Shown: positions 20,615 through 50,842 of the stretch, in pieces | Numbering within the stretch: the first letter of the stretch is position 1 | Layout of the letters: each line of letters begins with the position of its first letter | Virus record (IMG/VR): IMGVR_UViG_3300050144_000109 | Location: 84,451-148,450 of that record | Direction: 5' to 3' (one strand) | Length of the DNA: 64,000 nt | DNA from: a virus | Notes under the pieces: model-generated | The model's input: only the letters and a program-made list of their open reading frames with translations | What the model was told of the DNA's origin: nothing | Databases searched by the model: none | Translations under genes and position numbers: made by a program

Positions 20615-20983
20615 TTACCAATGACCACCACCACCAATTCGAATACCCAACCACATCATCCAAGCTTTCCACTTAGGAACCCCTTCTTCCACACACGCTT
20701 TGTAGAAGATGTCGTCTGCCAAGGCTCTGTATGCAACTGGATGCTTGCCATTCTTATCAACAGTATAGAGCCAATCGTGCAACGTGGCAGGAGGTCTTGC
20801 CATGTCACCAAAGAAAAGCCAAATGAAAGGCAGCCTAGGAACAGAAGCAAAATCAGTCACGAACCCAACGGGGACTGTGTATTTTTCATAATGCAAATGT
20901 GCTTTGAGTTTCCAAGAGCCTCTGTCAGAATTGGAAGTATCGCTGATGTCTTCAACAATGAGGGGTGAGAACTTAGACGACAT
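20615..20983 (-). CDS. DUF1353 family protein
   Basis: VPVGFVTDFASVPR, ATLHDWLY and ADDIFY motifs. Confidence 0.8.
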   Translation of the reverse strand: MSSKFSPLIVEDISDTSNSDRGSWKLKAHLHYEKYTVPVGFVTDFASVPRLPFIWLFFGDMARPPATLHDWLYTVDKNGKHPVAYRALADDIFYKACVEEGVPKWKAWMMWLGIRIGGGGHW

Positions 20984-21245: not shown

Positions 21246-21293
21246 GAAACTTACTCCTACTTAGTTAAAGGATGGGGTAAAATAAATATTCAT

Positions 21294-21337
21294 AGCATAA
21301 ATATCAACAGGATTTGACGCCTGTTGATATTTATGTG
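21294..21337 (-). terminator. Hairpin with TTTATG on both flanks
   Basis: CATAAATATCAACAGG/CCTGTTGATATTTATG stem. Confidence 0.7.
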
Positions 21338-21356: not shown

Positions 21357-22591
21357 TTAACTGGGAGATTTGATATACTTGCTCGGTTTGACTCTCCATG
21401 ACCAATCTAAATACTGCGCCATATATGCTGCAATAGCTGTCTTTGCTGCGCCAACGTAGTGCGTGCCATCGCCCATGATGGCACCGTACAGATCTTTACC
21501 CGTAGCTGGATCCGTTACAACCGTAGCAATGTCAGCCACCTGTGTTCCGTACGTAGCGATTAACCATGTGTTGTATTGTTTTCTTAGCGCTTCTTTGACT
21601 GCATCAGTAGATGCTACACTAAATGGAGTAATGGTTGTGTAGTAGCGATAGGTGAACCCATCTGCAATTGCTTTTGCAGTCATGCTTTGTGTGCTAGCGC
21701 ACATCTGCGCAAAGGTTCTTCCTTGACCAATGTCATTAATGCCGCCCTGAATGATTACAGCGTTACATCTTGGCTTCAAAGTTGTGATGTCCGTAGACCA
21801 ACGGGTATCCATATCAGCAAGCGTCTGCCCACCAATCGCCCGATTGAATAAGCTCAGTGAGAGTTCTGAGCCAAGAACTGTCGTAATTTCTCTGTTAGCA
21901 ACAACGTTGAAATCGTACATTCGATCATTAAAACCACTGGAACCAGCGAAAGTGGAGTCCCCAATGACTGCTACACCATCTAAGTAATTGGAGTTAACCG
22001 GCTCAACCATGAACCCTCCAATGTACGGTGCAGAGCCAGTGGCCATAATACCACCCCAATTATTATTGGTACTAATTAGGGGCAGACCACCGCCATTCGT
22101 AGTGCCTGGCGCAGTTGCCGGGGTTGTACCAACATCTAGAGTTGTAGTAGAAAAAGCGGTTGCCAAATACCAAACTCTAGTTAACTCACCAGCCTTGCAC
22201 CAAATAGCACCATGTCCATTAGAGGCCGCAGCAGGGCAAGATTTCTGATTCCACCAAAAGTCAACGGGGGACCAAACATAAAGACTGACCAAATATTTTT
22301 TACCAACAACATAGGGTGTTAAACCTGATGCAGTGATGTTTGTTGTGATCCCACCATAGACAGAACTGAAAGATACTTCGCTGAGTGTAATAATCCGTCC
22401 ATCTACAAACGCTTGTTTTGTAAGGCCCGTTTTGTACTGCCAATAGCAGCAATGTAATAAGCCCATGCCAAGTCTTCTGAATGAACTGCAATGTTCATTG
22501 AAACTGGAAGGGTTGTTCTAACTAAAGAGATACCTTGATTTGCTACTTGAGCCTGGTATAACGTAGAAAGATCATTCGTTGGGAGTCCCAT
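21357..22591 (-). pseudogene. SGNH/GDSL esterase (tailspike-like), split by a -1 frameshift near 22430 (ORFs 22403..22591 and 21357..22466)
   Basis: SGNH blocks IGDST, AIGG, GGINDI and DGTH. One extra A in ACAAAACGG joins the frames (...IGSTK-TGLTKQ...) into a protein of about 411 aa starting right after the collagen gene. Confidence 0.7.
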
Positions 22592-22594
22592 GAT

Positions 22595-23224
22595 TTATCC
22601 TTGATATTGTGCTTGCGGATACAGATCCCAACACCACACAGGAGCAGCAACTCCAGTAGGTTGGAACCAGCGAACTTTAGCGCCAGCGTTGATACCGTTC
22701 GATAAATATCGAACCTCTCCAACTAAGACGCCTTGAATTGAATTGCTTATCGCCTGCGAATCAGTGATGGTGTCTGAGATCAGCCCTGATTGAAAGGTGG
22801 CCTTTTCAATAACAGTACCTGAAGTGAATGCAGTTTGCATTCCAGCGAGTGTTGCAAGAGCATTCGTACCGTTAGTCCCTACAGGACCGGTAGCCCCAGT
22901 ATCGCCCTTAGGACCGGTAGCGCCAGTAGCGCCTACTGCACCAGGGGTGCCATTCGTGCCTGCTGGCCCTGGTGCACCTGTATCGCCTTTGAGTCCTTGA
23001 ATGCCTTGGGGTCCCGTGGGTCCTACAGGTCCTTGAATGCCTTGGGGTCCTTGAGGACCCGTGCCTCCGACACCAGTCAAGCCTGTGATCTGAGACGCTG
23101 GCAAGCGCAGGTCAGAGAGCTTGAGCAAGTAAGGAGGCTTGCCAGTACGGACAGCGTAAATCTTATCCGGTTGGATCAGACTAACTCGGCCCCGGTGGGC
23201 TCCGGGGGGGGGGGGGGTTGCCAC
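22595..23224 (-). CDS. Collagen-like fibre protein with a C14 tract after the start codon; paralog of the 27710..29377 N-terminus
   Basis: Gly-X-Y repeats; [36 protein letters not shown] identical to the paralog; GTG start with AAGGA SD. Confidence 0.8.
23204..23217. repeat. G14/C14 homopolymer
   Basis: 14 consecutive G on the plus strand, covering codons 3-7 of the collagen gene. Confidence 0.9.
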
Positions 23225-23273
23225 TGATGAAAAGTCCTTTAAATGAAGTTATGTATTGTGTCAAACAATATAA

Positions 23274-23335
23274 AAACATAAAACCCTCTCTGTACACCAC
23301 TCCTGATATTCACGGGAGTGGTGTACAGAGAGGGT
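23274..23335 (-). terminator. Long hairpin with TTTTATG tail
   Basis: 21-bp stem ACCCTCTCTGTACACCACTCC/GGAGTGGTGTACAGAGAGGGT. Confidence 0.75.
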
Positions 23336-27709: not shown

Positions 27710-29377
27710 TCAGTAAATTATGGCAGCGGCCAGCATCGCAGCAGTCGGCACCGCGACCCTGCTCGCATCCGCCCCGGTGTCGTTCAGGTGAATGCCGTCA
27801 CCCGTGTACCCGGCTTTCCAATATCCGCCCGTGCCCGCCGTCTGTTGACCAGAGACGAGGATCAGCGGTGTTTCGTTGCTATTGACTTCAGATTGAATGC
27901 ATGGGTCCGACAGAAAAACTTTCACTCCTCGGCAGAATGTGGATACCCATGCGGTCAAGTCCGTCGCGCGCAGCCAGTTATTGATTGCCACGCGCGTCGT
28001 TTCCCAGGAACGAACCGTCTGGGCTGAAGCAGAAGTCCACGCTCCGGTGGTGCGAGGAAGGATCGTGGCTACGGAAAAATTCCGACATGCCGACATCCGT
28101 ATAATCCACTTCTTCAGCTCGTCTTGATACCCGGCAAGCGTCGTAATGGTGAGAGCCTCCAAGTCGTTTGTCGCGACGTGCAGAAAAATACCATCGACGT
28201 ATCGCGCCACGATTCCGCAGTACACGTCATAACGGTTTGTGTTGAAGAGGGCAGATCCGTCGATTCCATTTACAGAATACCCACACCCTCCCGCAGTATC
28301 GAGGGCGCGAGCAATATACCCGACGAGGCCAGTAGTTCCATAGCCGTTTGAGATACTATCGCCCATGATCCCAAAAACAGGAGTTGGGTTACGCATGATT
28401 CCGGTGATTAGTGATGGACCATAGCACCGAGCGCCCCCAGTGTTTGCACCAAGCGTATCCGAAAGTGTCGTTGTGGCGTCTGCGCCGGTCGTCACTGTGG
28501 TGCCGGTGACAAGGTCTGTAGTTTTTCCATTGCTCGGGAACGTATATGTGTACGGCCATTTGTTACCGCTGGCCGCAGCCTTATGAACTCTCAAAAAATA
28601 TGTTGTTCCCGCAAGTAGAGGATTAGATTGCGGCAACGACTCGATATAGCCGAATTCTCGAAGAACTGTCCCGCTCTTCGTCGAACCAGTAATTGGGTTC
28701 TCGGTGTACGACGGAAAACTGACCTGATTGAGTTGGCTCGAAGCTTCCAACGCAGCTCGGATCTTCAAATCTCCGGCAACACCTGGGAAGCCGGACGATA
28801 CAATGGTACCGTTGACAAATACATACGAGATGTCGCTGCAGTCAGCAAACACGGTAAATCCAATTCGGTCGGTGCTGCTGACTTGAGTCGTGCCGTTTGA
28901 CTGCGCTCCACCCTGAGGGCGGAAGCCACCGAGGCTTGAGACAATGCGACGGCGAGGTATAGTCCCTGCCACGCTCGATTGAAAAGCAACTTGTTGAGCA
29001 GCCGTGCCGGCAGCGAAAGCTGCCTGCATTGTCGACAGGTCACTGGGTCCTGTAGGTCCCACAGGTCCAGCAACACCCTGGATGCCTTGGACGCCCGCAG
29101 GACCAGTGAGGCCGATCGGACCTTGGGGACCTGTGGGACCCGTTGCACCACCGGCACCCTGAGCACCTGTGGCTCCCGTAGGGCCTTGTGGTCCAGCAGG
29201 TCCTACAGGGCCCTGCACGCCTTGCGGTCCTTGAGGACCGGTACCACTGACCCCAGTCAATCCGGTGATCTGTGACGCAGGCAAGCGCAGATCACTGAGC
29301 TTCAGCAAGTAGGGTGGCTTGCCTGTCCTGACGGCATAAATCTTGTCCGGTTGAATGATAGGGAGAGTCGTTGCCAT
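27710..29377 (-). CDS. Collagen-like fibre fused to an SGNH/GDSL esterase (putative tailspike/deacetylase)
   Basis: ATG at 29377 with AAGGA SD; more than 20 Gly-X-Y triplets; SGNH blocks MGDSI, GIDG, ATNDL and DGIHL. Confidence 0.8.
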
Positions 29378-34034: not shown

Positions 34035-34369
34035 CGTGGTGTTCAGCCGTGTTCGCTAGACACGACCCGTGCGTTTAAGCACCGCTCATGGGTTTCCCAT
34101 GAGACCAGACTATCTCTTCTTCCTTTTGTTCAAGGGAGCTTCCTGTTTCCTCGCCGCTTGGCAAGTACGGGGTGATAAATCCCCTAGTCGTTGAACTCGC
34201 ACCATAGACTTGTAGTCCTTAGGTGATCAGCTGCTGATTGCCCAATCTCGGTGATTTTCAAACCTTGGCTTTGTCTTTCGACTCGCAGTGGTTCACCAGA
34301 GCTCTACAGGACTTCCCAGCAATTAAGGAAGATTCACTGTACCTTCTCAAGTACAGCGGACTAATGTTA
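34035..34369 (-). ncRNA. Group I self-splicing intron (IA2-like), 335 nt, no ORF
   Basis: P AATTGCTGGGAA, Q CAATCAGCAG, R GTTCAACGACTA, S AAGAGATAGTCT; P3 CTTCCT/AGGAAG; 5' site GAT|TAA with U.G pair in P1 (GAUUA/UAGUC); terminal G. Confidence 0.92.
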
Positions 34370-35800
34370 ATCATCACGATCTGAAAATGGCGCCAGCAGT
34401 GCTGAGGTAGATACCAAGGAAGTGGCACCGTCCTTGGCCATGTCAAAGTCAGTAGACGTCCCTAACAATGAATTAAACTTAGGGTTTGCAGACAGGTACA
34501 CATTGATGGCCACGTCAGATGAGTCTACAGTAGACTCCGACACCGTACCCATGTCGTTTCTATGGTAAGCGCGTGTATGTTTGACCATGCTGACTTTACT
34601 GCGGCCACCCACACCTGCATACGTCACTGCTTCGACTTCTTTCAAAGCTTCAATTGGATTAATCTCGTTGGTCTGTGATTTAGAAGGATCTTCTACAATC
34701 TTCTTCCAGACTGCGTACGGGTTCATCTCAATCTTCTTATTAGACTTGCCCAATGATCCATTGTGTTGTCTGAGCGACTGGATGATCTCTGAGTACACAG
34801 CACCAGAGATTCTCTCATAACCCTTGATTCTCATCTCACGAGGATCCAGTTCATCAGGATGTTTGTCATCCAGCAGCATCTCGCAAGCTTTCAACAACAG
34901 GCCTTGGAATGTCTCTGGTAATTTCAATTGCTCCAAGAGTTGCTTGGTGATGGGATCAATGAACATCTGGTTCATCAAGTCCATCTCTCTCAAGTACCGT
35001 GCTGAAAGCTTATTCGATTCCAGCAAGTTCAAGTAAATCGCACGTTTGTCAAAACTGTACACTGAGAACAAACGAATGACTCTGTGGTAGTCTAAGAAGC
35101 CACCCAACACCATGGCAGCAATTCTGTCGTCTCTAGAGAACACCAAAGTCTCATCGGAGAACACCAGTGCATACTCACTAGGTTCCAGTGACACTCGCTT
35201 ACCTGCTTCTACCCGTCTAGGGGTTACACGCAAAGACTTCATGAGTTCTGTGAAACCCATGTAGTATGCCAACACCACGCCTACAGGAACATCCTTACCA
35301 AACACACCCACTTCAGCAAACTCAACAGGTGAGAAATCAGTAGGAATATTCAGAAACGATTCCAGTGTCCCAGCAGGCGTCATGGCTTCACCTACCAAAG
35401 TGTAGAGTGCGCCCATGCTGTCTAGTACCAAGTAAGCACCTTTCAAGTTCATGCCTACCAGCAAGTTGCCTTGCTTGATGGTTTTCTCATAGAGCACAGG
35501 GTCTGCCAACTTTTGCATGGTCTCTTGTTCAAAGTAAAGCGTGTACCCCTTTGTAACAATGGACTTGAAACTGGTCGAGATGGCAGTGTAAGCTCTGGGT
35601 GCTTTGAGAGAAGGATCAAACACATCTGCAGGTGTGACTTGTGACAAGTCCTTGTCTTCTTGAGACAAAGCTTTGGTCATGATCTTGGCATTGAGCCAAG
35701 CACCGTAGTCATGTGTCTTCTTTCTTCCTCTGGTCACAAACGTCTTGCCAAAGTAACTTGTCATGGCTACTCGGTTAGGCGCTAGTTTTCTTAAGGGGAG
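34370..35800 (-). CDS. rpoB: Virion RNA polymerase beta subunit (phiKZ gp178-like), exon 2
   Basis: LPLRKLAPNRVAMTSYFGK, RIKGYER, TYAGVGGRS, SESTVDSSDVA; ends SDRDD. Confidence 0.88.
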
Positions 35801-36245
35801 CATCCCTTACAATGGACCATATCACCACCCTCTCAAAATCTTTGAGTTAGGGTGCCTACCGTTTCGGCTGTTGAGTTTCATCAACAGAATCATTGCTGAT
35901 TACGCATATCGAGATGCGCCCTACTCTACTCGCTTTAATCGCTTCATTCAAGCAACCACCTGACTTTATACAGATGTGATTATCCAGCACCAAAAAGCAC
36001 CAGAATAGCTTTCGATGGCCTCTGAGCACACTCCGTATACCACAAGGATACCTTAGGAGCTTCGCTGCGGATCATGTCTTTTAACAACGTTTTAACCAAG
36101 CCTGATTGGATCATTACCCGACAGGTATTGCACTACGTTTCCATGTGCAAGTGGTAGCTGTTAAAATTTTAAGACGTTTTCCCGCACTTAGGTAGGTTTT
36201 CTTTTACCGTATTTCTACGAGTAAGGGGACCATGCTTGGCTTTTA
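35801..36245 (-). ncRNA. Group I self-splicing intron (IA-type), 445 nt, no ORF
   Basis: P1 GGGGAU/GUCCCC with U.G at the splice site; P AAGTGCGGGAA, Q GATCCGCAG, R CTCAGAGGCCA, S GATATGGTCC; P3 CCTACC/GGTAGG; terminal G. Confidence 0.9.
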
Positions 36246-39799: not shown

Positions 39800-42700
39800 A
39801 TGTTTGGATTTGGAAAGAAAGCCAGAGTAGAGAATGAGTCGATTGACAGTGAGTTCAATCTGGATGACGGCTTGGACATGGGGGGGTTTGATTTTGATGC
39901 TGACCCCATGAAAGACGACAGAAAGCCAGTGACGAAGGTGCTGGATGGTGCACTGACTGGTTTCAAGGCTGGGGTGTCGGATACCAGCTTTTTAAAGAAG
40001 ACCGTCAAGGACATCTTGCCTGAAGGGTATGGCAAGACGTTAGATCTGCATGACAAAGTCAATGGCAGCATTCGTGACCTATACGATGAAACCGCCAAGG
40101 AAGTCAAACCAGCGATCAAAGAGTTCAAGAAAATCAGTGCAAGACTGATTCCTTCTGACTCTAAATTCATCCCGACTCCTGTGCAAGACTTGCTGCAGAA
40201 GTGGAGAGATGAGAAAGAAGAGGAGAAGCGGGACTCTTCTTTGGATGAGAATACACAAAAAGAACAGTTCTTGTCTGTGCAGATGGCAGACATCTTTCAA
40301 GCGCAGTCAGAAGACAAGCAAAGCGAGAAGAAAGAGAAAGACGCCAAAGACAACATCCAACAAGGCATAGACTTAGAGCGTCACCGGGACTTGCTGGGCA
40401 TTGTTTCTAACATGGATCAATCCGTCTCTCGGATTGACCAGTATGGCCGCTCAGTGGGTTTGAACTACCAGAAGAAGACGTTGGAGTTGATGTACCGTCA
40501 GCTCTTTGCTTTGCAAGACTTGGTGAAGCTGGGTGAGAAGGGGTTTGGCGTGATGGCCAACGAACTCCCTGCCATCAAGAAGAACACTGCATTGCCTGAG
40601 TTTGTCAAGCAAACCAATACCGAGTTCTTGAAAGAATACAACAAGAAGAAACTGGTCGAGACGATTGGTCGTAACTTGTTTGGCACGGGTGCTGAGTATC
40701 TGGACAAAGTGCTTGGGAACTTCAATAAGAATCTGAAAGCCAAGTTCAAGGAAGGCATTGGTCAGTTCAAAGACACGCTCACCCAAGCTGGCGAGATGCA
40801 CGACAGCATGAAAGACATGGGGGACATGCCTGGCATGGACAAAGCCACCATGGGTGGCAGCATGGTTGGTGACGCTGCTGCCAAAGGCATTGGCGGCAAG
40901 GCTGCGAAGTGGGTACAGAGCAACGTACTGAACAAGAGCGAGCGCGTCAACAAGCTGGGCTCTAAGTTACTCAACGCCAGTGTGGATGCGCCACGCGCCA
41001 TCAATGAATTCAGAGAGAAGAATGCAAACAGCTATTCAGATACTCTTTGGGGAAAAGCAAAGTCTGCTGCAGCCAGTCTGATCAGTCCGTTTGAGGAGAG
41101 CAAAAGCATTGAAGGGCAAGATGCTACCAAGCTAGGAAGTCCTGGTGTATTCTCCAAGAGAACAGACAGGTCCATCAATGAAGTCATTCCTGGATTCCTG
41201 GCTAGAATCTTGAGAGAGGTTCAAGTCTTCAGAACTGGAGATGAAAGCATTGAACTGCAAGCCTTTGACCATGTGAAGAACACTTTCACAGACAAGGGCA
41301 AGCTAGAGAAAAGAATTCAAGACTCTGTGATTGATTCTGGCGCTAAAGAGAACATGCACGGGCAGCTTGATGAGATGATCAAGCATACCGAAGGGCAGGA
41401 TCTCTCTCCAGAAGCCAAGAAAGCACTGAAGAAACGCTTGACCATGACCAGCGCTTCTGGCAAGCGCATGAGTCAGGAGAACTTTGATCAAGAAGACCAC
41501 TACGAAGGTGAGGGTGCTGCAGAAGCTGCAGCACACATGAAGAAGTACTTTGAAAAGAACAAAGACAACCAGGCGCACCAAACTGCAATCAAGCGCAGGC
41601 ACGACAACCTAGGTTCTTACGTCACCAACACCATGGGACAAGTAGAGACCAACGCTGAGCTTGGCTACACTGAGGAGTTGCAAAAGGCTGGCTTCTTGGA
41701 GAAAGACGGTAGAACAATTTCCAGAGACAAGATTCTGGAACATTACTTAAACCGCGAAGAGAAGAAAAAAGAAAATGGTGAGGGTGGATCTGATCCGTCA
41801 AATGAGCCAGGCAATCCCCCTGGTCCTGTGCCGCCTGGTCCAACGCCTCCGATTCCAGGAGCTGTTCCCCCGATCAATCCACATGGTGGTCCTGGTCCAG
41901 GAGGCCCCACACCGCCTCCGAACGTTGACTCTGGCTTAGGCGGTGGAGCTCCCAACCCTGTATCGGATACTTCAGCCGCTGGTGGCGCAGATCCGACGGT
42001 TGGACCACCAAAGCCAAAGACCAAGCTCCAACGTCTGGCGGGTTCTATTTCAACAGACATCGGTAACTTGCTAGAAGGTGCTTATAACAAAGGCTCGGAT
42101 GCTGTCAAGGGAACCATCGAAGTTTTGGACAGCAAAGACCCAAAAGAAAAACTCATTGAAAAGCTAGTCCCTAAGAAGTACAGAAGACTCTACAAAGACG
42201 GTTTACTTGATCGACACATGGTCGTTCAAGAACTGAAGAACGCGGCTAAGAAAGGTGGCCGTGATCTACAAGTCAAGATTGATGAAATCAAACAGCTCAA
42301 CAAGGACGGTGCCCTCAACATTGAGAATCTGGCACTGATCGCGCAAGGTAAGTCAGTCAAATCTGATTCAACACAGCCTGCTGAGCAGAATACTGAAACA
42401 GCTTCGATTGATGCTGGTGCTGACAAACCCAAAGCCTTCGCTAAAGGTGGCGTGTTTTCCAACTCCGTGCTGAACAAGCCGACTCCGTTTAGCTTTGAGC
42501 AAGGCGGCAAACCACACGCTGCAGTCGCTGGTGAAGCTGGCCCTGAAGCGGTCATGCCACTCACTGCACAAGGTGTGCGTGCAGTCGATGAGAAAGGGAA
42601 CGTACAAGCACACTTGCCACTGACGAGAGATAAGAACGGTATCCTTTCAGTTGAGCATGCCAACTCTATCAAGGATACTGGAAAGAAAGTTCTAGACGCT

Positions 42701-45700
42701 GTGGGTGGCTTCTTCACCAACACACGCGAAGCACTCCAGGACATCATTGCGGATAAAGCACACGAGCTGAAGAGTAAGCCTGTAGAGGCCAAGTCTTCTG
42801 CTAAGCCTTCTGCGCTGCCTGCAACTCCAAAGCCAGCCATGCGCAAGGACATGTCGGACAACGACAAGCTACTGTCCAAGTTGGATGAGTTGATCGATAC
42901 AGTCAAGAGTGCTTGGTCGGGTTCCTCTGTTGGCTCTACGGTAGGCAGTGTCGCACAGTCCGCAACTGCTTTGGCTGGAAGAGCCAGGAATGCTGCAACT
43001 GAGTTCATGGGGAGTCCGAAAGCGCAAGTGATGAAGACCCGTGCAACCGAAGGCTTCTCTGTAGCACAAAAGAAAGTAGAAGAACTCAAAGCATCACCTA
43101 AGCTGACTGCGTTACAGACAGCCGCTACCAAGAAGTTAGAGCAAGCTAAGAAAGTAGTCTCACAAACGAAGCTCCCCAGCATGGAGGAGATGGGTGCGCA
43201 TGTAAGCAGTGCAAAGAAGAGCGCCACTGGCTTTGCAGAGCAGTTGAAGACGCACGCTATTCTAGGCGCTGGGAAGCTTCAACAGCATTTGGAGAATATC
43301 CAGAAGACTCCTTCTGACCCTACTACACCAGTCAGTGTATTGGACCAGCTTAAAGCACATGCAAGTTCTGGCGTTCAAGCAGTACAACAAAAGATCCAAC
43401 AGAGTCAAGGCAATCTGGATCCAAAGACCAAAGAAAAGATCAGCGGTCTGCTGTCTGGAGCTGCTTCCAAAGCCAGCGCCGTAAAGAAGCAGCTGCATGC
43501 AGCTACGACTAAAGTCAAAGAACAAACACAAGGGTTCTTAGAGCAGCAGCCTGCACTGGCTAAGCACATTGAAGCTGGTCGTGAGACGGTGGGTAAGTTG
43601 CTAGGCACTGCACAAGCAACGACTCCGCTAGAGCCGGTAGTTACTCCCCAAGCAGCTGCCAGTAATGCCACTAGCATGGGTAAGAAAGATACGCTTAAAG
43701 CGCGTTTAAATGCTGCACATGCAGATTTATCTGGCCATCTGGAAAGTGTGTTAACACCAGCACCCACATTGTCTACAAAGATGGACGATGTGAAACAAAG
43801 CAGTGGCGGCGTATTCCAGATGCTGCGCAACAAGCTGGACAAGAAGTCGACCCAAAATGTTCAAGTAACGCAAACCAATGAGAAGCCCACGCCTGAAGAA
43901 GCGAAAGAGCATTCAAAGGTCCTGCAATACGCACAGACTCTGATTACCAAGAAACAAACCACGACTGAAGAAGTCAAGACCATCCTCAACTCACTGGTAG
44001 AGAAGAAAGCACTGACGCTGGAGAACTTTAAGAAAGTGCTGAAGGGCGAAGAAGTAGTCTCTAACAAGGTTGAAGAAGTTCAGTCCGCTACTCAAGACAA
44101 GAAACTCACACTGAAAGAACAACTCAAGGCAGGTGCGCAGTCTCTGCGAGTGTTCGGTGAAGACCAACTCATTAAAACCAAGCAAGCCTATACACAACAC
44201 CGCCAAGCCTCTTTAGACAAGGCTGAAGAAAATAAGCCGCCTGCACAAAACGACAAGCTGAAGAAAACCATTGCTGCTGCACAGGCGTACGCCCCTACAC
44301 TCAAGGGTAATGTTCAAGACAAGTTGGAGTCCGGCAAGAAGAACGTTCTGGGTTTCATGAACGTAGTCGCTGAGCAAGCCAAGAAACTGGCTGAACAAGT
44401 CCATGAGAAGGGATCTAAAGCTGTCGAGACTGGGAAAGCATTTGTCAATGAGAAACTGGAGAGTCGCAAGAGCAAAGAGTCTGGAAGTGCTTTCAAAGAA
44501 CGCGATGAAATCACTGGTGATCTTGAAACCGTACTGAGGAAGAACTTACACGGGATTCAGATCACGCTGGACAAGTCAGAAGACCACTTGTCTAAGATCT
44601 TGGAAGCCATCCGCGAAGGTGGCGGTGGTGGCAATGGAAAAGCCAAGGGTTCTTGGTGGTCATTTGGTAAGAAGGGTAATGAGGAAAAGGCGAACCATGG
44701 AAGTGGTGTGTCTGGTCTGGTAGGTAGAGCTGCATCGAGCGCTACTTCTCTGGCAGGCAAAGGCCTAGGCTTGGCAGCACGCACCTTCGGCAAGACTGCC
44801 ATGATGAATGTCAGTGCGATCAAGTGGGCGGGTAAGAAACTGATGCCTGGAGGCCCTAAAGAGCCTAAAGACATTTATGTTGAAGGTGAGTCTAGACCGC
44901 GCCTGTACGCTGCAAGACTTAAAGAGGGTATGTACATTAAGAAGATCAGCAAGAAACCCCTGACCGATATCAAGGACTTGAACGAACCAATCATTGACCA
45001 AGAAGGCAATGAGCTACTGACAGAAGAAGACTTGAAGAAGGTCTACGTCAAGAGCATCGGTGGGAAAGCCAAGAAGTTATTAGGCGGCATTGGGAAAGTC
45101 GGTGGAGCCGTTGGTCGTGGTCTGGGCTCTTATGCTGGTCTGGCCAAGAAAATCATTGGCTTTGAAGTCGACATGGTGCGTGGCGGTCTGGGACTGGCTA
45201 AGAAAGCAGTGACTGGCGCTTACGGCCTCATGAATGGTCCTGCAGATGTCTACACACTAGGAATTGAAGAACCCGTCATGGTCGCTACTGTGATGAAGCA
45301 TGGCGGTTACGCTTCCAAGCTCACAGGCAAAGTCATCAAGAAGCCAACAGACATCGACGGTCCAGTCGTAGACAAAGAGGGCAACACGGTCCTGACCACG
45401 GATCAATTGAGAAAAGGTATTTTCAACGCAAAGGGAAAGAAGTTCAAAACACCTTTGGGTAAGCTACTTGGTGTGGCTGGTAAAGTCGCAGGCACTGTTT
45501 GGGGCGTACAGAAAGCAGCTTGGGGACTGACCAAGCAAATTGGTAAGAAGATGCTAGGTGGTCTGAAAGGACTGACTGGTGGGCTCTTTGATGGCTTGTC
45601 TGTAGAGATCAATGGTGCCAAAAGCGTCTCTGTACTCACTGAGATCAAAGAGATGCTCAAAACGTACTTTAGTGGAAAAGGAAAAAATGAGGATAAAAAC

Positions 45701-48700
45701 AACAAGCCAGACATTACCAAGGATGAAAAAGGTTTCAAGATAGGTTCTTGGCAAGACTTGAAGCTCAAAGCTGAGGAGCGGATGAAGGAGAAGAAAGAAA
45801 AACTAAAGAATGGATTGGCTAATTTGAAGGACGGTGCCGGTAAAGTCAAGAACAAGTTGCTGAATCCATTTGAGCTGTTCAAGGACTTGAAGGGCTTGGT
45901 CACTGGGACCTTGGGGAAGATCACTGGGCTTATTTCTGGCGTCAAGGGTCTGTTCTCGATGGGTAAAGGCGCCATTGGCATGCTGGGTAAACTGGGCAAG
46001 GTCGGAGGTTTGGCTGCAAGGCTGTTGCCAATGGCTGGTGGTTTGGCCGGTAGTGCAGTCGGCGCTTTGGGTACACTGGGCTCTGGCGCTGCTGCTGCGG
46101 CTACTGGCATTGCTGGGGCTGCCGGTACAGTGGTCAGTGCAGGCGCTGGCATGATGGGTGCAGCCGCTGGTGGTGCAGGTGCTTTGGGAGCTGGGTTGCT
46201 GAGCTTCTTAGCGTCGCCTGTGGTACTTGGTGTGGCTGCCGCTGCAGTTGTCGGCTATGGCGGCTATAAACTTTATAAACACTTCAAGAACAAACTCACC
46301 CCTTTGGACAGTGTTCGTTTTGTGCAATATGGTTTCAAGAAAGATGACAAAGACAGCTTCAAGAAGGTGTTGGAGCTAGAAGAATACTGCATGGATTTTG
46401 TTGCTTACAGCAAAGGACAAGCCAGCATCAGCGAAAAGAAAATGACCATGAAGAAACTCATGGGTCCATTTGGATTTGACTGTGAGAATAAAGAAGACTT
46501 CAAACTCTTCTTTGAATGGTACCAAAGAAGATTCAAGCCTGTGTTCTTGACGCACTGCTCTGTCATTGCACAAGTCATGGACCAGTCTAAACCAGACCTG
46601 AGCGTCATCTCGGATTTGAAGAAAGAAAAAGCAGCAGAATACTTGGAGAAGGCATCGTTCTCTGGCGGCCCTTACGATTTGAATAAGTTGCCGTTGAAGG
46701 AAGATACTTACCAAGCCAGTACCGCCAAAGACGTCGCTGACAACATTGCGGCTGTCAAGGAAGAATTAGGTCTGGATAAACTGGATAAGAAAGAAACTGG
46801 CTCTAAACTAGGCAGCATCGCTGGAGCTGCTGGTGTAGCCAGTGTGGCAGGCAAGTCCAACAAGAATGAGGAAGTAAAGCCGGGTGAGAAACCTGAGAAA
46901 TCTAAAGAAAATAAATCTGTTTTAGAATCTGTCTCCAGTGGCTTGAAAGCGATGCTGACGGGTACAGTAGGTAAAGTAGGTGCAGTAGCTACTGCTGGGA
47001 TGGTGGGCGGCCCCATGGCTGCTTTGCTGGCGACTGCGGGCATTGCCGGCTACACTCTGATCAAGTCGTTCGGTAAAACTAAACTCATGCCAGTCGACAA
47101 TGTGCGCCTGGTGCAATATGGATTTAAGAAAGACGATCAAGAGAACTTTGATAAGGTTGCCAAATTAGAAGCATACTGTAAATCGTTCCTCACCTACAGT
47201 GAAGGAAAGATGACCATCGATGAAACCAAGATGCAAATGAAGGAGCTGCTGGGTCCGTTTGGATTAGACCCCAGCAACAAAGAGGAGTTAGAGCAGTTCT
47301 TCGAATGGTACCAGAAGCGCTTCAAGGTGGTTTACTTGACCCACTGCGCCGTCATGGCGCAACTCAAGAAGACTGCCAAGCCAGATACCAAAGACATCAA
47401 TGCGTTAAAGTTGGATGAGCAGGGCGACTACTTGACTGGCGTTGCTTTGGAGGATGGTCCTTACAACATCACAACACTGCCGCTCACAGACAAGAAATAC
47501 AAAGCGTCTACTGCAAAAGACGTGAAAGAAGTCATTGCTGAAATGAAGAAGATGCTGGGCAAGTTTGCAAAGTCTAGCAAGCCCAGTCTCTTGAAAAATG
47601 CTGCAAAACCTGCGGCCATTCAAACTGAAATGGAAACAGAAGAAGTCGATCCTTCTACAGAGAAACAGGCAAGCGATGCGCCAGTCAATCTGGGCGGGTT
47701 TACACTGAAGGGCAAACAAACCCCTACAGCAGCGACTGTTTCCAGCATCAGCAAGATCAACAAGAATCTAGAGACTAAAGATGATGAAGAGTACGGTGAC
47801 GATGTTCAGATGCAAGAGCTGGTGGATTTATCCACACTCAAGCAGGACGGCAAACTCAGCGCACTCGAAGCCATCAAGTTCAAAACGTACGGTTTGAAAG
47901 AACTGGACAAATCCAGGATGAAAGCCATTGAAGTCGTGGAAGCGGTTGTGGCAAAGACGATGGTTTATAAGAGTGGTACGACAGACTGGGCTGGAAGTCC
48001 ATTGGCGACACTGGATGAAGTCAAGGGTCACTTCGGAATCACAGACAAGATTGGGGTTGATGCCAACAACTGGATCACCTGGTTCATGAAACGGTTCTTA
48101 CCCGTTTACTTGAAGTACGTGAGTCTGTGGTGTGCTTACTCGGGTCAGAAGACCTACACTGGGAACTTGGGGATGATCAAGGTTTCTCAGCAACAAGACA
48201 TGGCCAAGCAAATTGCTGCGATGTCCGTTTGGAGCGAGAACAAGACGCCATTCCCGAACTATATTCTCAACACTGATTCTGACAGCGTCAAAGAGAATTT
48301 AGAGTTCTTAGAGAAAACTGTCAAGCAAGAAAAAGCACTGGAAGAGAAGGTAACAGTTGCCAAACAGCAGCAGCCGATCAGCCCCAATGACGACAAGGAA
48401 AAGCAGGCTAAAGAAGCTGCTACCAAAAACAACGATGAAAACAAAACACTGTTTGGGAAAACGCTTAATCAAGACGCTACACAAACTGGGCAATCTGCCA
48501 ACAAACCAGAAGAAGAAAAACCAACTGCTTCTACCTCTAGTTCTACGGGCCAGGCTGCTGGAGGAGGAGGTGGAGGGGGTGCTAGCCCTACTGGATTGAA
48601 ACTTGCGGAAGGCGCTCCACTGGACGGCTCCAACGGTTTTCAATTCATCAACAAACAAGACAATGGTGTCAAGACAGACGGCGTTAACCCCGCATTCTTG

Positions 48701-50842
48701 AAGCAGTTCCTAGGAATGACAGAGGAGTATAATAAACTCACTGGTAAGAAAATCACAGTGACAGACGGTTTTAGATCGTACGACGATCAGATGGCTAGAA
48801 AGAAGAAGTATGGGGCACGGGCTGCTGCTCCAGGAACCTCTATGCACGAGTTTGGTCTGGCCATGGACGCTGACTCCAAGACGTTGGATGAAGTTGACAA
48901 GCTAGGCCTGATGCGCAAGTACGGGTTCACCCGTCCAGTGGGCGGTGAACCATGGCACGTAGAAGCCATTGGTACTGCATCCAGTGCTGAGAAAGACAAG
49001 TACAAGAAAGACCCTAATGCTGCGCTGGCAGCCATTGAGTCTGGGATGGGACGAGGTGGTGGTGGTCAGGGTACCATTGCTGGAGCCCCTAAGAATTCCA
49101 GAAATGATGAATTGGTTAAAAGCATCATGGGCGCTAAGGTAGAACCCACCGTAGCCAAGGCAGATAAAGCATCTGATCCAGGCGCTGGTGCACCCGCTGG
49201 TGTACAAGCCAAAACACCTGGCGCTGCTGGGGAAGACAGTAAAAGCAGTCCGACTGGGCTGGGTGCTCAAGGTGGTGTTACTGATGCCGCCAAGAAAGAT
49301 CCAAAGGCAGTTGCAGCTAATGCTGGTGGCGGTGCGGTAGGAGGTAGTGCAATGGGTGGCGGAGCTACATCTAGCGGAGCAGATGTCAGGCCTGTTGCAG
49401 ATGAGACTAAACCAAAAGTAACCGCTACGCCAACTGGTGCGCCCAACACAGCATCCAAGGACTTGAATACCAAGATGGCTGACAACAGCTCAAATGGTAA
49501 AGCTTTGGGTGGAGTGAAAACAGATCTTCCTAATGACCCCAGCGTCAAGGTTCCTAAGCCCAATGGCAGTGTAGACAGTGTAAAGAAAACTGTGGAGAGT
49601 GCAGCGCAGATGGTGGGTGTCAAACCAGATGTGGCTACTTCTACTGTGGCCATTGAGTCTGGATTTGATGTCAATGCAAAAGCAAAGGGCACGACGGCTT
49701 CGGGTCTGTTCCAATTCCTGAATGGAACTTGGAGAGAAATGCTGAACAAACATGGCTCTAAGCTCGGTGTGTTGCCTGGGACGTCTCCCTTTGATGCTTC
49801 TGCAAACGCCATCATGGGTGCACAATACATCAAGGACAATGAGAAGATTCTCAAGAGCTCTAGTGGTGTGTCAGAAGTGGGTCCTACCGACATCTACGCT
49901 GCACACTTCTTGGGTCCTTATGGAGCAGGTAAATTACTCAAGGCCATTAAGAATAATCCTGACCAATCAGCGCAAGCGTTACTGCCTAGTGCTGCGGCCA
50001 GCAATGCTTCTATTTTCTATGAGAATGGCAACACCAGTGCACCTAAATCCGTGAAGGGTGTCTACGATGTCTTGGACAAGAAAGTCAAGACCAAGGCTTC
50101 TCAATTCGGAATCAAGGTGGATTTGAAGGGATCCGTCACAGGGGATGCCAAGGCAAAAGAAGGTGACAAGCCTGTAGACTACGGCACTGCAACAGGTGGA
50201 GGAAGTCCTACGGGACAGCCTGGAACCAAGCCTGCAGATGCTCCTCAGGGTGCTGCTGCTGGAGCTAAGCTAGCTGCTGGAAGCTCTACCGATAAGAACG
50301 CTGCTCCTGCTCCCAGCAATGGGGCTACTCCAAGCACTGGGAATAATAACTCCATAATGCCTCCTGCAGGCCCTAAAACAGCCAAGGCAGAGCCTCTAAC
50401 CAGTCAGCAGCCGCAGAGCTACAACGACTCAAATAAAACGCCTCAGAAAGCCGATACTGGAACTCAAGGGAAACCAAGTCAGAAAACAAATGGCATGTTC
50501 AACATGGGTCAAAACCCAATTGACAACGTCTACGGGTTCTCACCAAAGACAGTGGACTACAATGCCAGCAACCAAATGCAGAATGCACAGAGCTTTGATG
50601 CGAAACTATTGCAACCTACAGAGAAGCTGCTCACTGATTCTCTGAAAGCACAAAACTCCATGGTGGAGATTCTGAACAATATCTTTGGATTGATGAGTAA
50701 CAACTCCAAGGAAAAAGAACAATCTGCTGCAGACAGCACAAAGTCAGAACAGAAAAGTGGGGAAGATACACAGAGTAAAACACCTGCTTCCATCACACAC
50801 AAGCAAACCGATGTTCCAGTGAAGATGAGAAGAAATATGTAA
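39800..50842 (+). CDS. Tape-measure-like tail protein with peptidoglycan hydrolase domains (phiKZ gp181-like)
   Basis: 3680 aa; M15/VanY-like peptidase (GFRSYDDQ, PGTSMHEFGLAMD, EPWHVE); SLT lytic transglycosylase (AIESGF, ASGLFQF, YAAHFLG); Gly/Ala-rich hydrophobic segments; divergent from the gp180-like gene. Confidence 0.88.
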   Translation: MFGFGKKARVENESIDSEFNLDDGLDMGGFDFDADPMKDDRKPVTKVLDGALTGFKAGVSDTSFLKKTVKDILPEGYGKTLDLHDKVNGSIRDLYDETAKEVKPAIKEFKKISARLIPSDSKFIPTPVQDLLQKWRDEKEEEKRDSSLDENTQKEQFLSVQMADIFQAQSEDKQSEKKEKDAKDNIQQGIDLERHRDLLGIVSNMDQSVSRIDQYGRSVGLNYQKKTLELMYRQLFALQDLVKLGEKGFGVMANELPAIKKNTALPEFVKQTNTEFLKEYNKKKLVETIGRNLFGTGAEYLDKVLGNFNKNLKAKFKEGIGQFKDTLTQAGEMHDSMKDMGDMPGMDKATMGGSMVGDAAAKGIGGKAAKWVQSNVLNKSERVNKLGSKLLNASVDAPRAINEFREKNANSYSDTLWGKAKSAAASLISPFEESKSIEGQDATKLGSPGVFSKRTDRSINEVIPGFLARILREVQVFRTGDESIELQAFDHVKNTFTDKGKLEKRIQDSVIDSGAKENMHGQLDEMIKHTEGQDLSPEAKKALKKRLTMTSASGKRMSQENFDQEDHYEGEGAAEAAAHMKKYFEKNKDNQAHQTAIKRRHDNLGSYVTNTMGQVETNAELGYTEELQKAGFLEKDGRTISRDKILEHYLNREEKKKENGEGGSDPSNEPGNPPGPVPPGPTPPIPGAVPPINPHGGPGPGGPTPPPNVDSGLGGGAPNPVSDTSAAGGADPTVGPPKPKTKLQRLAGSISTDIGNLLEGAYNKGSDAVKGTIEVLDSKDPKEKLIEKLVPKKYRRLYKDGLLDRHMVVQELKNAAKKGGRDLQVKIDEIKQLNKDGALNIENLALIAQGKSVKSDSTQPAEQNTETASIDAGADKPKAFAKGGVFSNSVLNKPTPFSFEQGGKPHAAVAGEAGPEAVMPLTAQGVRAVDEKGNVQAHLPLTRDKNGILSVEHANSIKDTGKKVLDAVGGFFTNTREALQDIIADKAHELKSKPVEAKSSAKPSALPATPKPAMRKDMSDNDKLLSKLDELIDTVKSAWSGSSVGSTVGSVAQSATALAGRARNAATEFMGSPKAQVMKTRATEGFSVAQKKVEELKASPKLTALQTAATKKLEQAKKVVSQTKLPSMEEMGAHVSSAKKSATGFAEQLKTHAILGAGKLQQHLENIQKTPSDPTTPVSVLDQLKAHASSGVQAVQQKIQQSQGNLDPKTKEKISGLLSGAASKASAVKKQLHAATTKVKEQTQGFLEQQPALAKHIEAGRETVGKLLGTAQATTPLEPVVTPQAAASNATSMGKKDTLKARLNAAHADLSGHLESVLTPAPTLSTKMDDVKQSSGGVFQMLRNKLDKKSTQNVQVTQTNEKPTPEEAKEHSKVLQYAQTLITKKQTTTEEVKTILNSLVEKKALTLENFKKVLKGEEVVSNKVEEVQSATQDKKLTLKEQLKAGAQSLRVFGEDQLIKTKQAYTQHRQASLDKAEENKPPAQNDKLKKTIAAAQAYAPTLKGNVQDKLESGKKNVLGFMNVVAEQAKKLAEQVHEKGSKAVETGKAFVNEKLESRKSKESGSAFKERDEITGDLETVLRKNLHGIQITLDKSEDHLSKILEAIREGGGGGNGKAKGSWWSFGKKGNEEKANHGSGVSGLVGRAASSATSLAGKGLGLAARTFGKTAMMNVSAIKWAGKKLMPGGPKEPKDIYVEGESRPRLYAARLKEGMYIKKISKKPLTDIKDLNEPIIDQEGNELLTEEDLKKVYVKSIGGKAKKLLGGIGKVGGAVGRGLGSYAGLAKKIIGFEVDMVRGGLGLAKKAVTGAYGLMNGPADVYTLGIEEPVMVATVMKHGGYASKLTGKVIKKPTDIDGPVVDKEGNTVLTTDQLRKGIFNAKGKKFKTPLGKLLGVAGKVAGTVWGVQKAAWGLTKQIGKKMLGGLKGLTGGLFDGLSVEINGAKSVSVLTEIKEMLKTYFSGKGKNEDKNNKPDITKDEKGFKIGSWQDLKLKAEERMKEKKEKLKNGLANLKDGAGKVKNKLLNPFELFKDLKGLVTGTLGKITGLISGVKGLFSMGKGAIGMLGKLGKVGGLAARLLPMAGGLAGSAVGALGTLGSGAAAAATGIAGAAGTVVSAGAGMMGAAAGGAGALGAGLLSFLASPVVLGVAAAAVVGYGGYKLYKHFKNKLTPLDSVRFVQYGFKKDDKDSFKKVLELEEYCMDFVAYSKGQASISEKKMTMKKLMGPFGFDCENKEDFKLFFEWYQRRFKPVFLTHCSVIAQVMDQSKPDLSVISDLKKEKAAEYLEKASFSGGPYDLNKLPLKEDTYQASTAKDVADNIAAVKEELGLDKLDKKETGSKLGSIAGAAGVASVAGKSNKNEEVKPGEKPEKSKENKSVLESVSSGLKAMLTGTVGKVGAVATAGMVGGPMAALLATAGIAGYTLIKSFGKTKLMPVDNVRLVQYGFKKDDQENFDKVAKLEAYCKSFLTYSEGKMTIDETKMQMKELLGPFGLDPSNKEELEQFFEWYQKRFKVVYLTHCAVMAQLKKTAKPDTKDINALKLDEQGDYLTGVALEDGPYNITTLPLTDKKYKASTAKDVKEVIAEMKKMLGKFAKSSKPSLLKNAAKPAAIQTEMETEEVDPSTEKQASDAPVNLGGFTLKGKQTPTAATVSSISKINKNLETKDDEEYGDDVQMQELVDLSTLKQDGKLSALEAIKFKTYGLKELDKSRMKAIEVVEAVVAKTMVYKSGTTDWAGSPLATLDEVKGHFGITDKIGVDANNWITWFMKRFLPVYLKYVSLWCAYSGQKTYTGNLGMIKVSQQQDMAKQIAAMSVWSENKTPFPNYILNTDSDSVKENLEFLEKTVKQEKALEEKVTVAKQQQPISPNDDKEKQAKEAATKNNDENKTLFGKTLNQDATQTGQSANKPEEEKPTASTSSSTGQAAGGGGGGGASPTGLKLAEGAPLDGSNGFQFINKQDNGVKTDGVNPAFLKQFLGMTEEYNKLTGKKITVTDGFRSYDDQMARKKKYGARAAAPGTSMHEFGLAMDADSKTLDEVDKLGLMRKYGFTRPVGGEPWHVEAIGTASSAEKDKYKKDPNAALAAIESGMGRGGGGQGTIAGAPKNSRNDELVKSIMGAKVEPTVAKADKASDPGAGAPAGVQAKTPGAAGEDSKSSPTGLGAQGGVTDAAKKDPKAVAANAGGGAVGGSAMGGGATSSGADVRPVADETKPKVTATPTGAPNTASKDLNTKMADNSSNGKALGGVKTDLPNDPSVKVPKPNGSVDSVKKTVESAAQMVGVKPDVATSTVAIESGFDVNAKAKGTTASGLFQFLNGTWREMLNKHGSKLGVLPGTSPFDASANAIMGAQYIKDNEKILKSSSGVSEVGPTDIYAAHFLGPYGAGKLLKAIKNNPDQSAQALLPSAAASNASIFYENGNTSAPKSVKGVYDVLDKKVKTKASQFGIKVDLKGSVTGDAKAKEGDKPVDYGTATGGGSPTGQPGTKPADAPQGAAAGAKLAAGSSTDKNAAPAPSNGATPSTGNNNSIMPPAGPKTAKAEPLTSQQPQSYNDSNKTPQKADTGTQGKPSQKTNGMFNMGQNPIDNVYGFSPKTVDYNASNQMQNAQSFDAKLLQPTEKLLTDSLKAQNSMVEILNNIFGLMSNNSKEKEQSAADSTKSEQKSGEDTQSKTPASITHKQTDVPVKMRRNM

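Follow-up and report, generated by a model that had tools for sequence, protein, structure and literature searches.

The collagen fibre module and its poly-C tract

The DNA examined in this work (64,000 nucleotides, hereafter the window) is the final 64 kb of a 148,450-bp IMG/VR virus contig with a CheckV completeness of 55%. Its RNA polymerase beta-like protein (window 34367-35803) has 42-50% identity to that of Burkholderia phage FLC9 and Ralstonia phages RP12, RP31 and RSF1, and because the closest of these are FLC9 (50%) and then RP12 and RP31 (47%), a host within the Burkholderiales is suggested. Judging by its sequence, the virus is a phiKZ-like jumbo phage and its host is probably a beta-proteobacterium. 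The features on which our analysis centres, namely a small fibre gene (gene B), the module to which it belongs and a paralogous gene (paralog A), are the following.

27710..29377, minus strand: paralog A, 555 aa, with the same anchor domain and collagen stalk fused to another SGNH esterase, and with an N-terminus that lacks the tract
23283..23335, minus strand: terminator hairpin of the upstream gene, with a 21-bp stem, marking where the module B transcription unit begins
23222..23224, minus strand: GTG start codon of gene B
23204..23217, minus strand: C14 homopolymer, gene B codons 3-7 (ACC CCC CCC CCC CCC)
23180..23203, minus strand: GC-rich segment of 24 nt (GAHRGRVS) directly after C14, without counterpart in paralog A or in the proteins of the sibling assemblies
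22595..23224, minus strand: gene B, 209 aa, comprising an N-terminal anchor domain, a collagen Gly-X-Y stalk and a C-terminal domain of ~90 aa
22403..22591, minus strand: 62-aa ORF that begins 3 nt past the gene B stop; its last 64 nt are shared, in a different frame, with the next ORF
21357..22466, minus strand: 369-aa SGNH/GDSL esterase ORF (PF13472, E = 1e-11)
21295..21336, minus strand: hairpin closing the module B unit, 3' of the esterase
20615-20983: DUF1353 protein just downstream of module B, with a match to phrog_1158 (tail assembly chaperone)

In the protein encoded by gene B the anchor domain (~45 aa) is followed by a stalk that matches PF01391 (E = 1e-9) and whose collagen part matches tail-fibre PHROGs. 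The 369-aa esterase is likely to be the enzymatic partner of stalk B, and a third collagen gene, followed by the gene for a 579-aa protein, lies just downstream of the module. The collagen stalk, the SGNH esterase and the chaperone-like neighbour together have the composition of a fibre/depolymerase module presumably located in the virion; we infer that the gene B protein is a virion fibre, and it is reasonable to treat gene B as a fibre gene of a jumbo phage. The terminator upstream of the gene is a strong one that shows a U-run directly after its stem and is followed by UUUUAUGUUUUU. The motif TTTATG follows both hairpins bounding the module (23268-23282 and 21285-21300, minus strand), and we take it to resemble the TATG motif that phiKZ late promoters are reported to carry. 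Inside the module, the 62-aa and 369-aa ORFs overlap at 22403-22466 (minus strand). As the 369-aa call is identical on 7 sibling contigs, this split is not a one-off error; the 62-aa ORF may be the frameshifted N-terminus of the esterase, whose gene may be frameshifted or recoded.

The anchor domain is shared by fibres A and B (window 29250-29360 and, on the minus strand, 23066-23182). Searching it by phmmer against 1.84 billion representative proteins yielded matches to this phage's own paralogs only, a search for related loci that took the entire fibre protein as query matched nothing but collagen repeats, and megablast of module B found no counterpart among 50,697 phage records. Because the anchor domain is confined to this phage lineage, no comparison beyond the lineage is possible. 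Within it, the start regions of the two genes are homologous (ATCA-GTG-GCAAC in B, ATC-ATG-GCAAC in A), which pairs the GTG of gene B with the ATG of paralog A, and the sibling gene calls likewise begin with V. An AAGGA motif resembling a Shine-Dalgarno sequence lies at 23235-23239, 10 nt upstream of the GTG, and its spacing class is alike for the two start codons. The conserved M-A-T start of gene B is joined to its anchor domain, likewise conserved, by an N-terminal linker, and it is in this linker that the tract is found, inside the ORF and near its 5' end.

On the coding strand the tract is C14 and on the plus strand it is G14 (window 23204-23217). Reading from the start codon, the minus strand gives GTG GCA A, the fourteen C's, GGAGCCCACCGGGGCCGAGTTAGT and then CTGATCCAACCGG, and gene B codons 1-18 are GTG GCA ACC, CCC four times, GGA GCC CAC CGG GGC CGA GTT AGT and CTG ATC CAA. 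The original prediction had described a C14 run right after the GTG start of a fibre gene, located in a 9-codon insertion missing from the paralog, in frame (ON) at present and longer than any other G/C run noticed in the window. All of this was borne out: the run is there in the sequence, the DNA alignment of A and B leaves a 27-nt (9-codon) gap in A, the translation of the 209-aa ORF passes through the tract in frame, and the next longest G/C run in the window is 7.

Run-length counts over the entire 148,450-bp contig give 8 as the longest G/C run besides C14, and a G or C run of at least 14 would be expected by chance ~4e-4 times in the contig. C14 is therefore the only G/C run above 8 and lies well within the range of slippage-prone lengths of contingency loci (~8-9 or more G/C). 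CCC is the rarest proline codon (16.7%) and is used four times in the tract, while nine other poly-Pro runs in long ORFs use mixed codons and have no long C runs, from which we conclude that C14 is a DNA-level feature and not the by-product of a need for proline. As to other homopolymers, the second-longest G run of the window is a G7 at 39880-39886 (plus strand), 80 nt into an ORF of 3,680 codons (39800-50842). The remaining long homopolymers of the contig lie outside the window: at contig positions 81235-81255 a C8 is followed three bases on by a T10, outside any ORF of at least 100 aa, and at contig positions 28839-28848 there is a T10 on the coding strand, 25 nt into a 124-aa ORF.

Variation among sibling assemblies

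Sibling assemblies were compared as proteins, in a protein collection in which fibre B forms a 90% cluster of three members on five contigs. The 209-aa allele of the window, with its C14 (P0006), is present on one contig only. A form of 201 aa (P0004) beginning VATTPPPLIQPDKI (VATTPPP..), whose last 194 residues are identical to those of the window allele, is carried by 3 contigs, among them one of 240,441 bp. The other 201-aa form (P0005), on one contig of 148,371 bp, resembles P0004 but reads LFQPDKF, with two I-to-F changes. Only one assembly thus shows the C14 allele, and the insertion is missing from the allele that predominates, which occurs on 3 contigs, the 240-kb contig among them. 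What distinguishes the alleles, by protein comparison, is a 24-nt indel, a T/P change and the two I-to-F changes, and not plain tract length; judging by the codons, a run of as many as 12 C's could underlie the TTPPPL of the siblings.

An exact-sequence look-up of nine neighbouring proteins found each of them as one single sequence on 6-10 sibling contigs, and paralog A is invariant among the sibling assemblies, its sole variant being a different start call. Among the proteins looked up in about ten assemblies of this essentially clonal phage, differences were seen at the few codons of the tract site and nowhere else. With sibling differences confined to these few codons, the tract site can be regarded as a local mutational hot spot; such confined variation would equally fit a spot at which sequencing or assembly is unreliable.

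All five assemblies carrying gene B have it in frame. The protein collection held no OFF-type product of 114-366 aa with the C-terminal domain beyond the known cluster, no N-terminal fragment of 30-113 aa, and none of the OFF-type calls (177 aa from an internal TTG, ~234 aa from an upstream GTG). Together with the fact that the alleles differ by an indel and substitutions, these observations are counted against an active switch.

One further fibre-type protein was met on sibling contigs only. It is a 576-aa SGNH esterase with two repeated domains and the same anchor (P0020), found on 4 sibling contigs, one of them the 240-kb contig, and absent from the contig of the window. Its gene call starts VRTGK, a start that is probably due to a contig edge falling in the repeated anchor, and on this ground the phage has at least four such fibre modules.

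Tract length, reading frame and competing explanations

The region of gene B was rebuilt in silico with 8 to 19 C's. Over this range a full-length product was obtained only at lengths of 8, 11, 14 and 17, carrying 2 to 5 prolines, and all other lengths gave peptides of 12-17 aa; because every length outside this series truncates the protein, the tract has the ON/OFF geometry of a contingency locus. The gain or loss of one base in C14 leads to peptides of 14-15 aa, which, like the products of the other out-of-frame lengths, end at one of two stop codons.

23181-23183, minus strand: TAG closing one alternative frame, within the 24-nt segment
23176-23178, minus strand: TGA closing the other alternative frame, just downstream of the 24-nt segment

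In the OFF state, only two start codons would allow the frame of the protein body to be called: a TTG within the gene (177 aa) and a GTG that falls in the upstream terminator (~234 aa).

The 24-nt segment after the tract preserves the reading frame and contains no in-frame stop. No second copy of it exists in the contig within 6 mismatches, which led us to reject a donor copy elsewhere in the contig as its source. Compared with 23156-23177, at an offset of 25 nt downstream, the segment (23180-23203) matches at 14/22 positions with every mismatch towards G or C, where ~0.04 such matches would be expected within 150 nt on either side. A degenerate duplication, error-prone repair or chance could each account for its origin. 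The hairpin proposed in the original prediction (CCCCGG-AGCCCA-CCGGGG) does form in the minimum-energy fold, but this fold is no more stable than that of shuffled sequence (z = -0.2), and the hairpin was therefore discarded as evidence. We also rejected a diversity-generating retroelement as the source of the variation, since the site is N-terminal and the differences between A and B are ordinary synonymous third-position changes that are not adenine-specific. Nor is a chimera of paralogous fibre genes needed, both alleles sharing the VAT start and the downstream sequence.

The original prediction interpreted the tract as a phase-variation switch, and this is partly supported: the position of the tract, its effects on the frame and its standing as the sole variable site among the siblings speak for the switch, whereas the five assemblies contain no allele of OFF length. 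In the mechanism that we propose, C14 would be a slippage-prone homopolymer in a length-tolerant N-terminal linker of the stalk of the module B fibre. Slippage during replication by 1 or 2 bases would lead into frames that end after 14-15 codons, leaving no stalk B, and slippage by three bases would add or remove one proline. The phage population would then be heritably and reversibly mixed, some particles having fibre B and others not, and the OFF particles would probably lack the SGNH esterase partner as well. This supposes a useful rate of slippage, the existence of OFF variants and a change in host recognition upon switching, all of which we infer. That C14 is a real, slippage-prone, switch-like locus of the contingency type, caught here at an ON length, is the explanation we favour, and it seems to us quite possible if somewhat short of probable.

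The interpretation has to be weighed against an error, or a rare minority variant, in the window allele, the true or majority form being the MATTPPPL... of the siblings. The 209-aa form is known from one contig, compared with three for the 201-aa form, including the longest (240,441 bp), and the source is a metagenome assembly. A second singleton assembly has a pair of odd I-to-F substitutions no more than 8 codons from the site, as poor base calls near a homopolymer would produce, and the 24-nt segment, which has no other copy in the contig, has a 14/22 likeness to the DNA 25 nt downstream in which the mismatches all go towards G/C. Against an error, the run sits 107.6 kb into the 148-kb contig and not at its end, both of its flanks are homologous to the paralog, and the extra 24 nt keep the frame with no in-frame stop; a de Bruijn assembler, moreover, would have difficulty in setting a corrupted copy in tandem and returning to the true sequence afterwards, and the exact match of the remainder of the contig to the siblings at the protein level argues for the accuracy of the data. 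Two-colour poly-G artefacts, which the original prediction had named as a possible undoing of its proposal, arise at the ends of reads and contigs and not inside genes, and they are unlikely here because the run is internal, in frame and bridged by homologous sequence on both sides. Given that the allele is a singleton and that a second singleton has odd substitutions beside the same site, we grant real weight to the allele not being the majority form, while considering it unlikely.

The tract may otherwise be real and yet no functional switch, that is, a mutational by-product in an indel-tolerant, low-complexity linker in which selection keeps the frame and frameshifted progeny are defective. 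Every allele observed is in frame, the alleles vary in linker length and composition as an unconstrained linker would, paralog A has yet another linker (TTLPI), and the splitting of the esterase frame into 62-aa and 369-aa ORFs could mean that selection on module B is relaxed. Drift, on the other hand, is not expected to produce a 14-base run in the rarest proline codon when the other G/C runs of the genome stop at 8, both alternative frames close at once, and the location in a module of the host-recognition type is that of known contingency loci; we judge a functionless tract to be an unlikely account, though one to be taken seriously. Much more improbable, in our opinion, is that the tract tunes expression to a low and fixed dose of fibre B, through stalling at PPPPG with dependence on the EF-P of the host or through slippage of the RNA polymerase giving mixed-frame transcripts. 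It is established that EF-P relieves ribosome stalling at poly-proline and that transcription can slip on long homopolymers, and the ON allele does encode PPPPG at codons 4-8, directly after the start. In the sibling alleles, however, the prolines number just three and L comes next, the exclusive use of CCC is not accounted for by a need for proline, and the best-documented cases of transcriptional slippage concern A/T runs.

Comparison with known contingency systems

In bacteria, poly-G/C contingency loci are known from surface genes of Campylobacter jejuni, Neisseria and Haemophilus, where the ON and OFF states follow from tract length modulo 3 and slippage rates are high above a threshold of roughly 8-9 bases. 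The tract of gene B resembles these loci in standing just after the start codon of a gene for a surface structure and in being well above 8-9 bases; it differs from them in belonging to a virus genome that is presumably copied by the phage's own polymerase. With the invertible fibre segments of Mu and P1 and the diversity-generating retroelement of Bordetella phage BPP-1 it would share the outcome, mixed virions with alternative receptor-binding equipment, but no invertase or reverse transcriptase is involved at gene B.

Closer in kind are the Campylobacter phages (Fletchervirus), in which hypermutable polyG tracts lead to phase-variable expression of receptor-binding proteins (Sorensen 2021, Cell Rep 35:109214, as relayed in PMC10579305, PMC12823448 and PMC10877375). 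As these accounts present them, the two cases have in common a long G/C homopolymer in the coding region of a host-recognition gene, a large lytic phage of the myovirus type and a shift of frame with tract length. Neither the phmmer search of the anchor domain against 1.84 billion representatives nor the megablast against 50,697 phage records disclosed homology of gene B to the receptor-binding protein genes of Campylobacter phages (Fletchervirus and Firehammervirus); with this phage's own paralogs as the sole matches to the anchor domain, the two cases resemble each other in mechanism alone. The present phage is, in addition, phiKZ-like, with a host that is probably a beta-proteobacterium, a single tract in 148 kb, no OFF state seen among five assemblies and no length variation of the tract observed. 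Contingency loci made of simple sequence repeats of 6 bases or more have also been described in the coliphages T2 and T4 and in other phages (Gomez, Barrick and Waters, preprint, bioRxiv 10.1101/2025.10.21.683753). There, too, homopolymers lie in phage ORFs, and they bring about reversible frameshifts and population heterogeneity (bet-hedging); the repeats of T2/T4 measure 6-9 bases, consist mostly of A/T and occur in large numbers in genes of every class, in contrast to the one, much longer C run found here at the very 5' end of a fibre gene. As lytic Campylobacter myophages and, in the preprint, T2/T4 are reported to use such tracts, the original statement that a switch of this type would be unusual for a lytic phage loses some of its force. 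The class of contingency tracts is thus already known, and gene B would be a further, unproven case of it.

A more far-reaching proposal is that one poly-C contingency tract switches a single one of at least four alternative collagen-stalked esterase/glycosidase fibres, as the first such case in the phiKZ-like group, yielding mixed virions and bet-hedged host recognition; we put it forward tentatively and hold it to be rather doubtful. On this proposal the tract might be of very recent origin, the outcome of an expansion and an insertion in a linker rich in C. Should the tract not be a switch, the locus would serve as a warning against reading singleton homopolymer alleles in metagenome assemblies as switches. 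Should it be one, it would have been caught near its birth, given that the otherwise identical sibling genomes have a shorter and different linker. If tract length is truly mixed in the population, homopolymer switching of receptor-binding equipment would extend from Campylobacter and T-even phages to the phiKZ-like jumbo phages, a group that is of interest for the biocontrol of plant pathogens and in which the nearest cultured relatives of this phage infect Burkholderia and Ralstonia.
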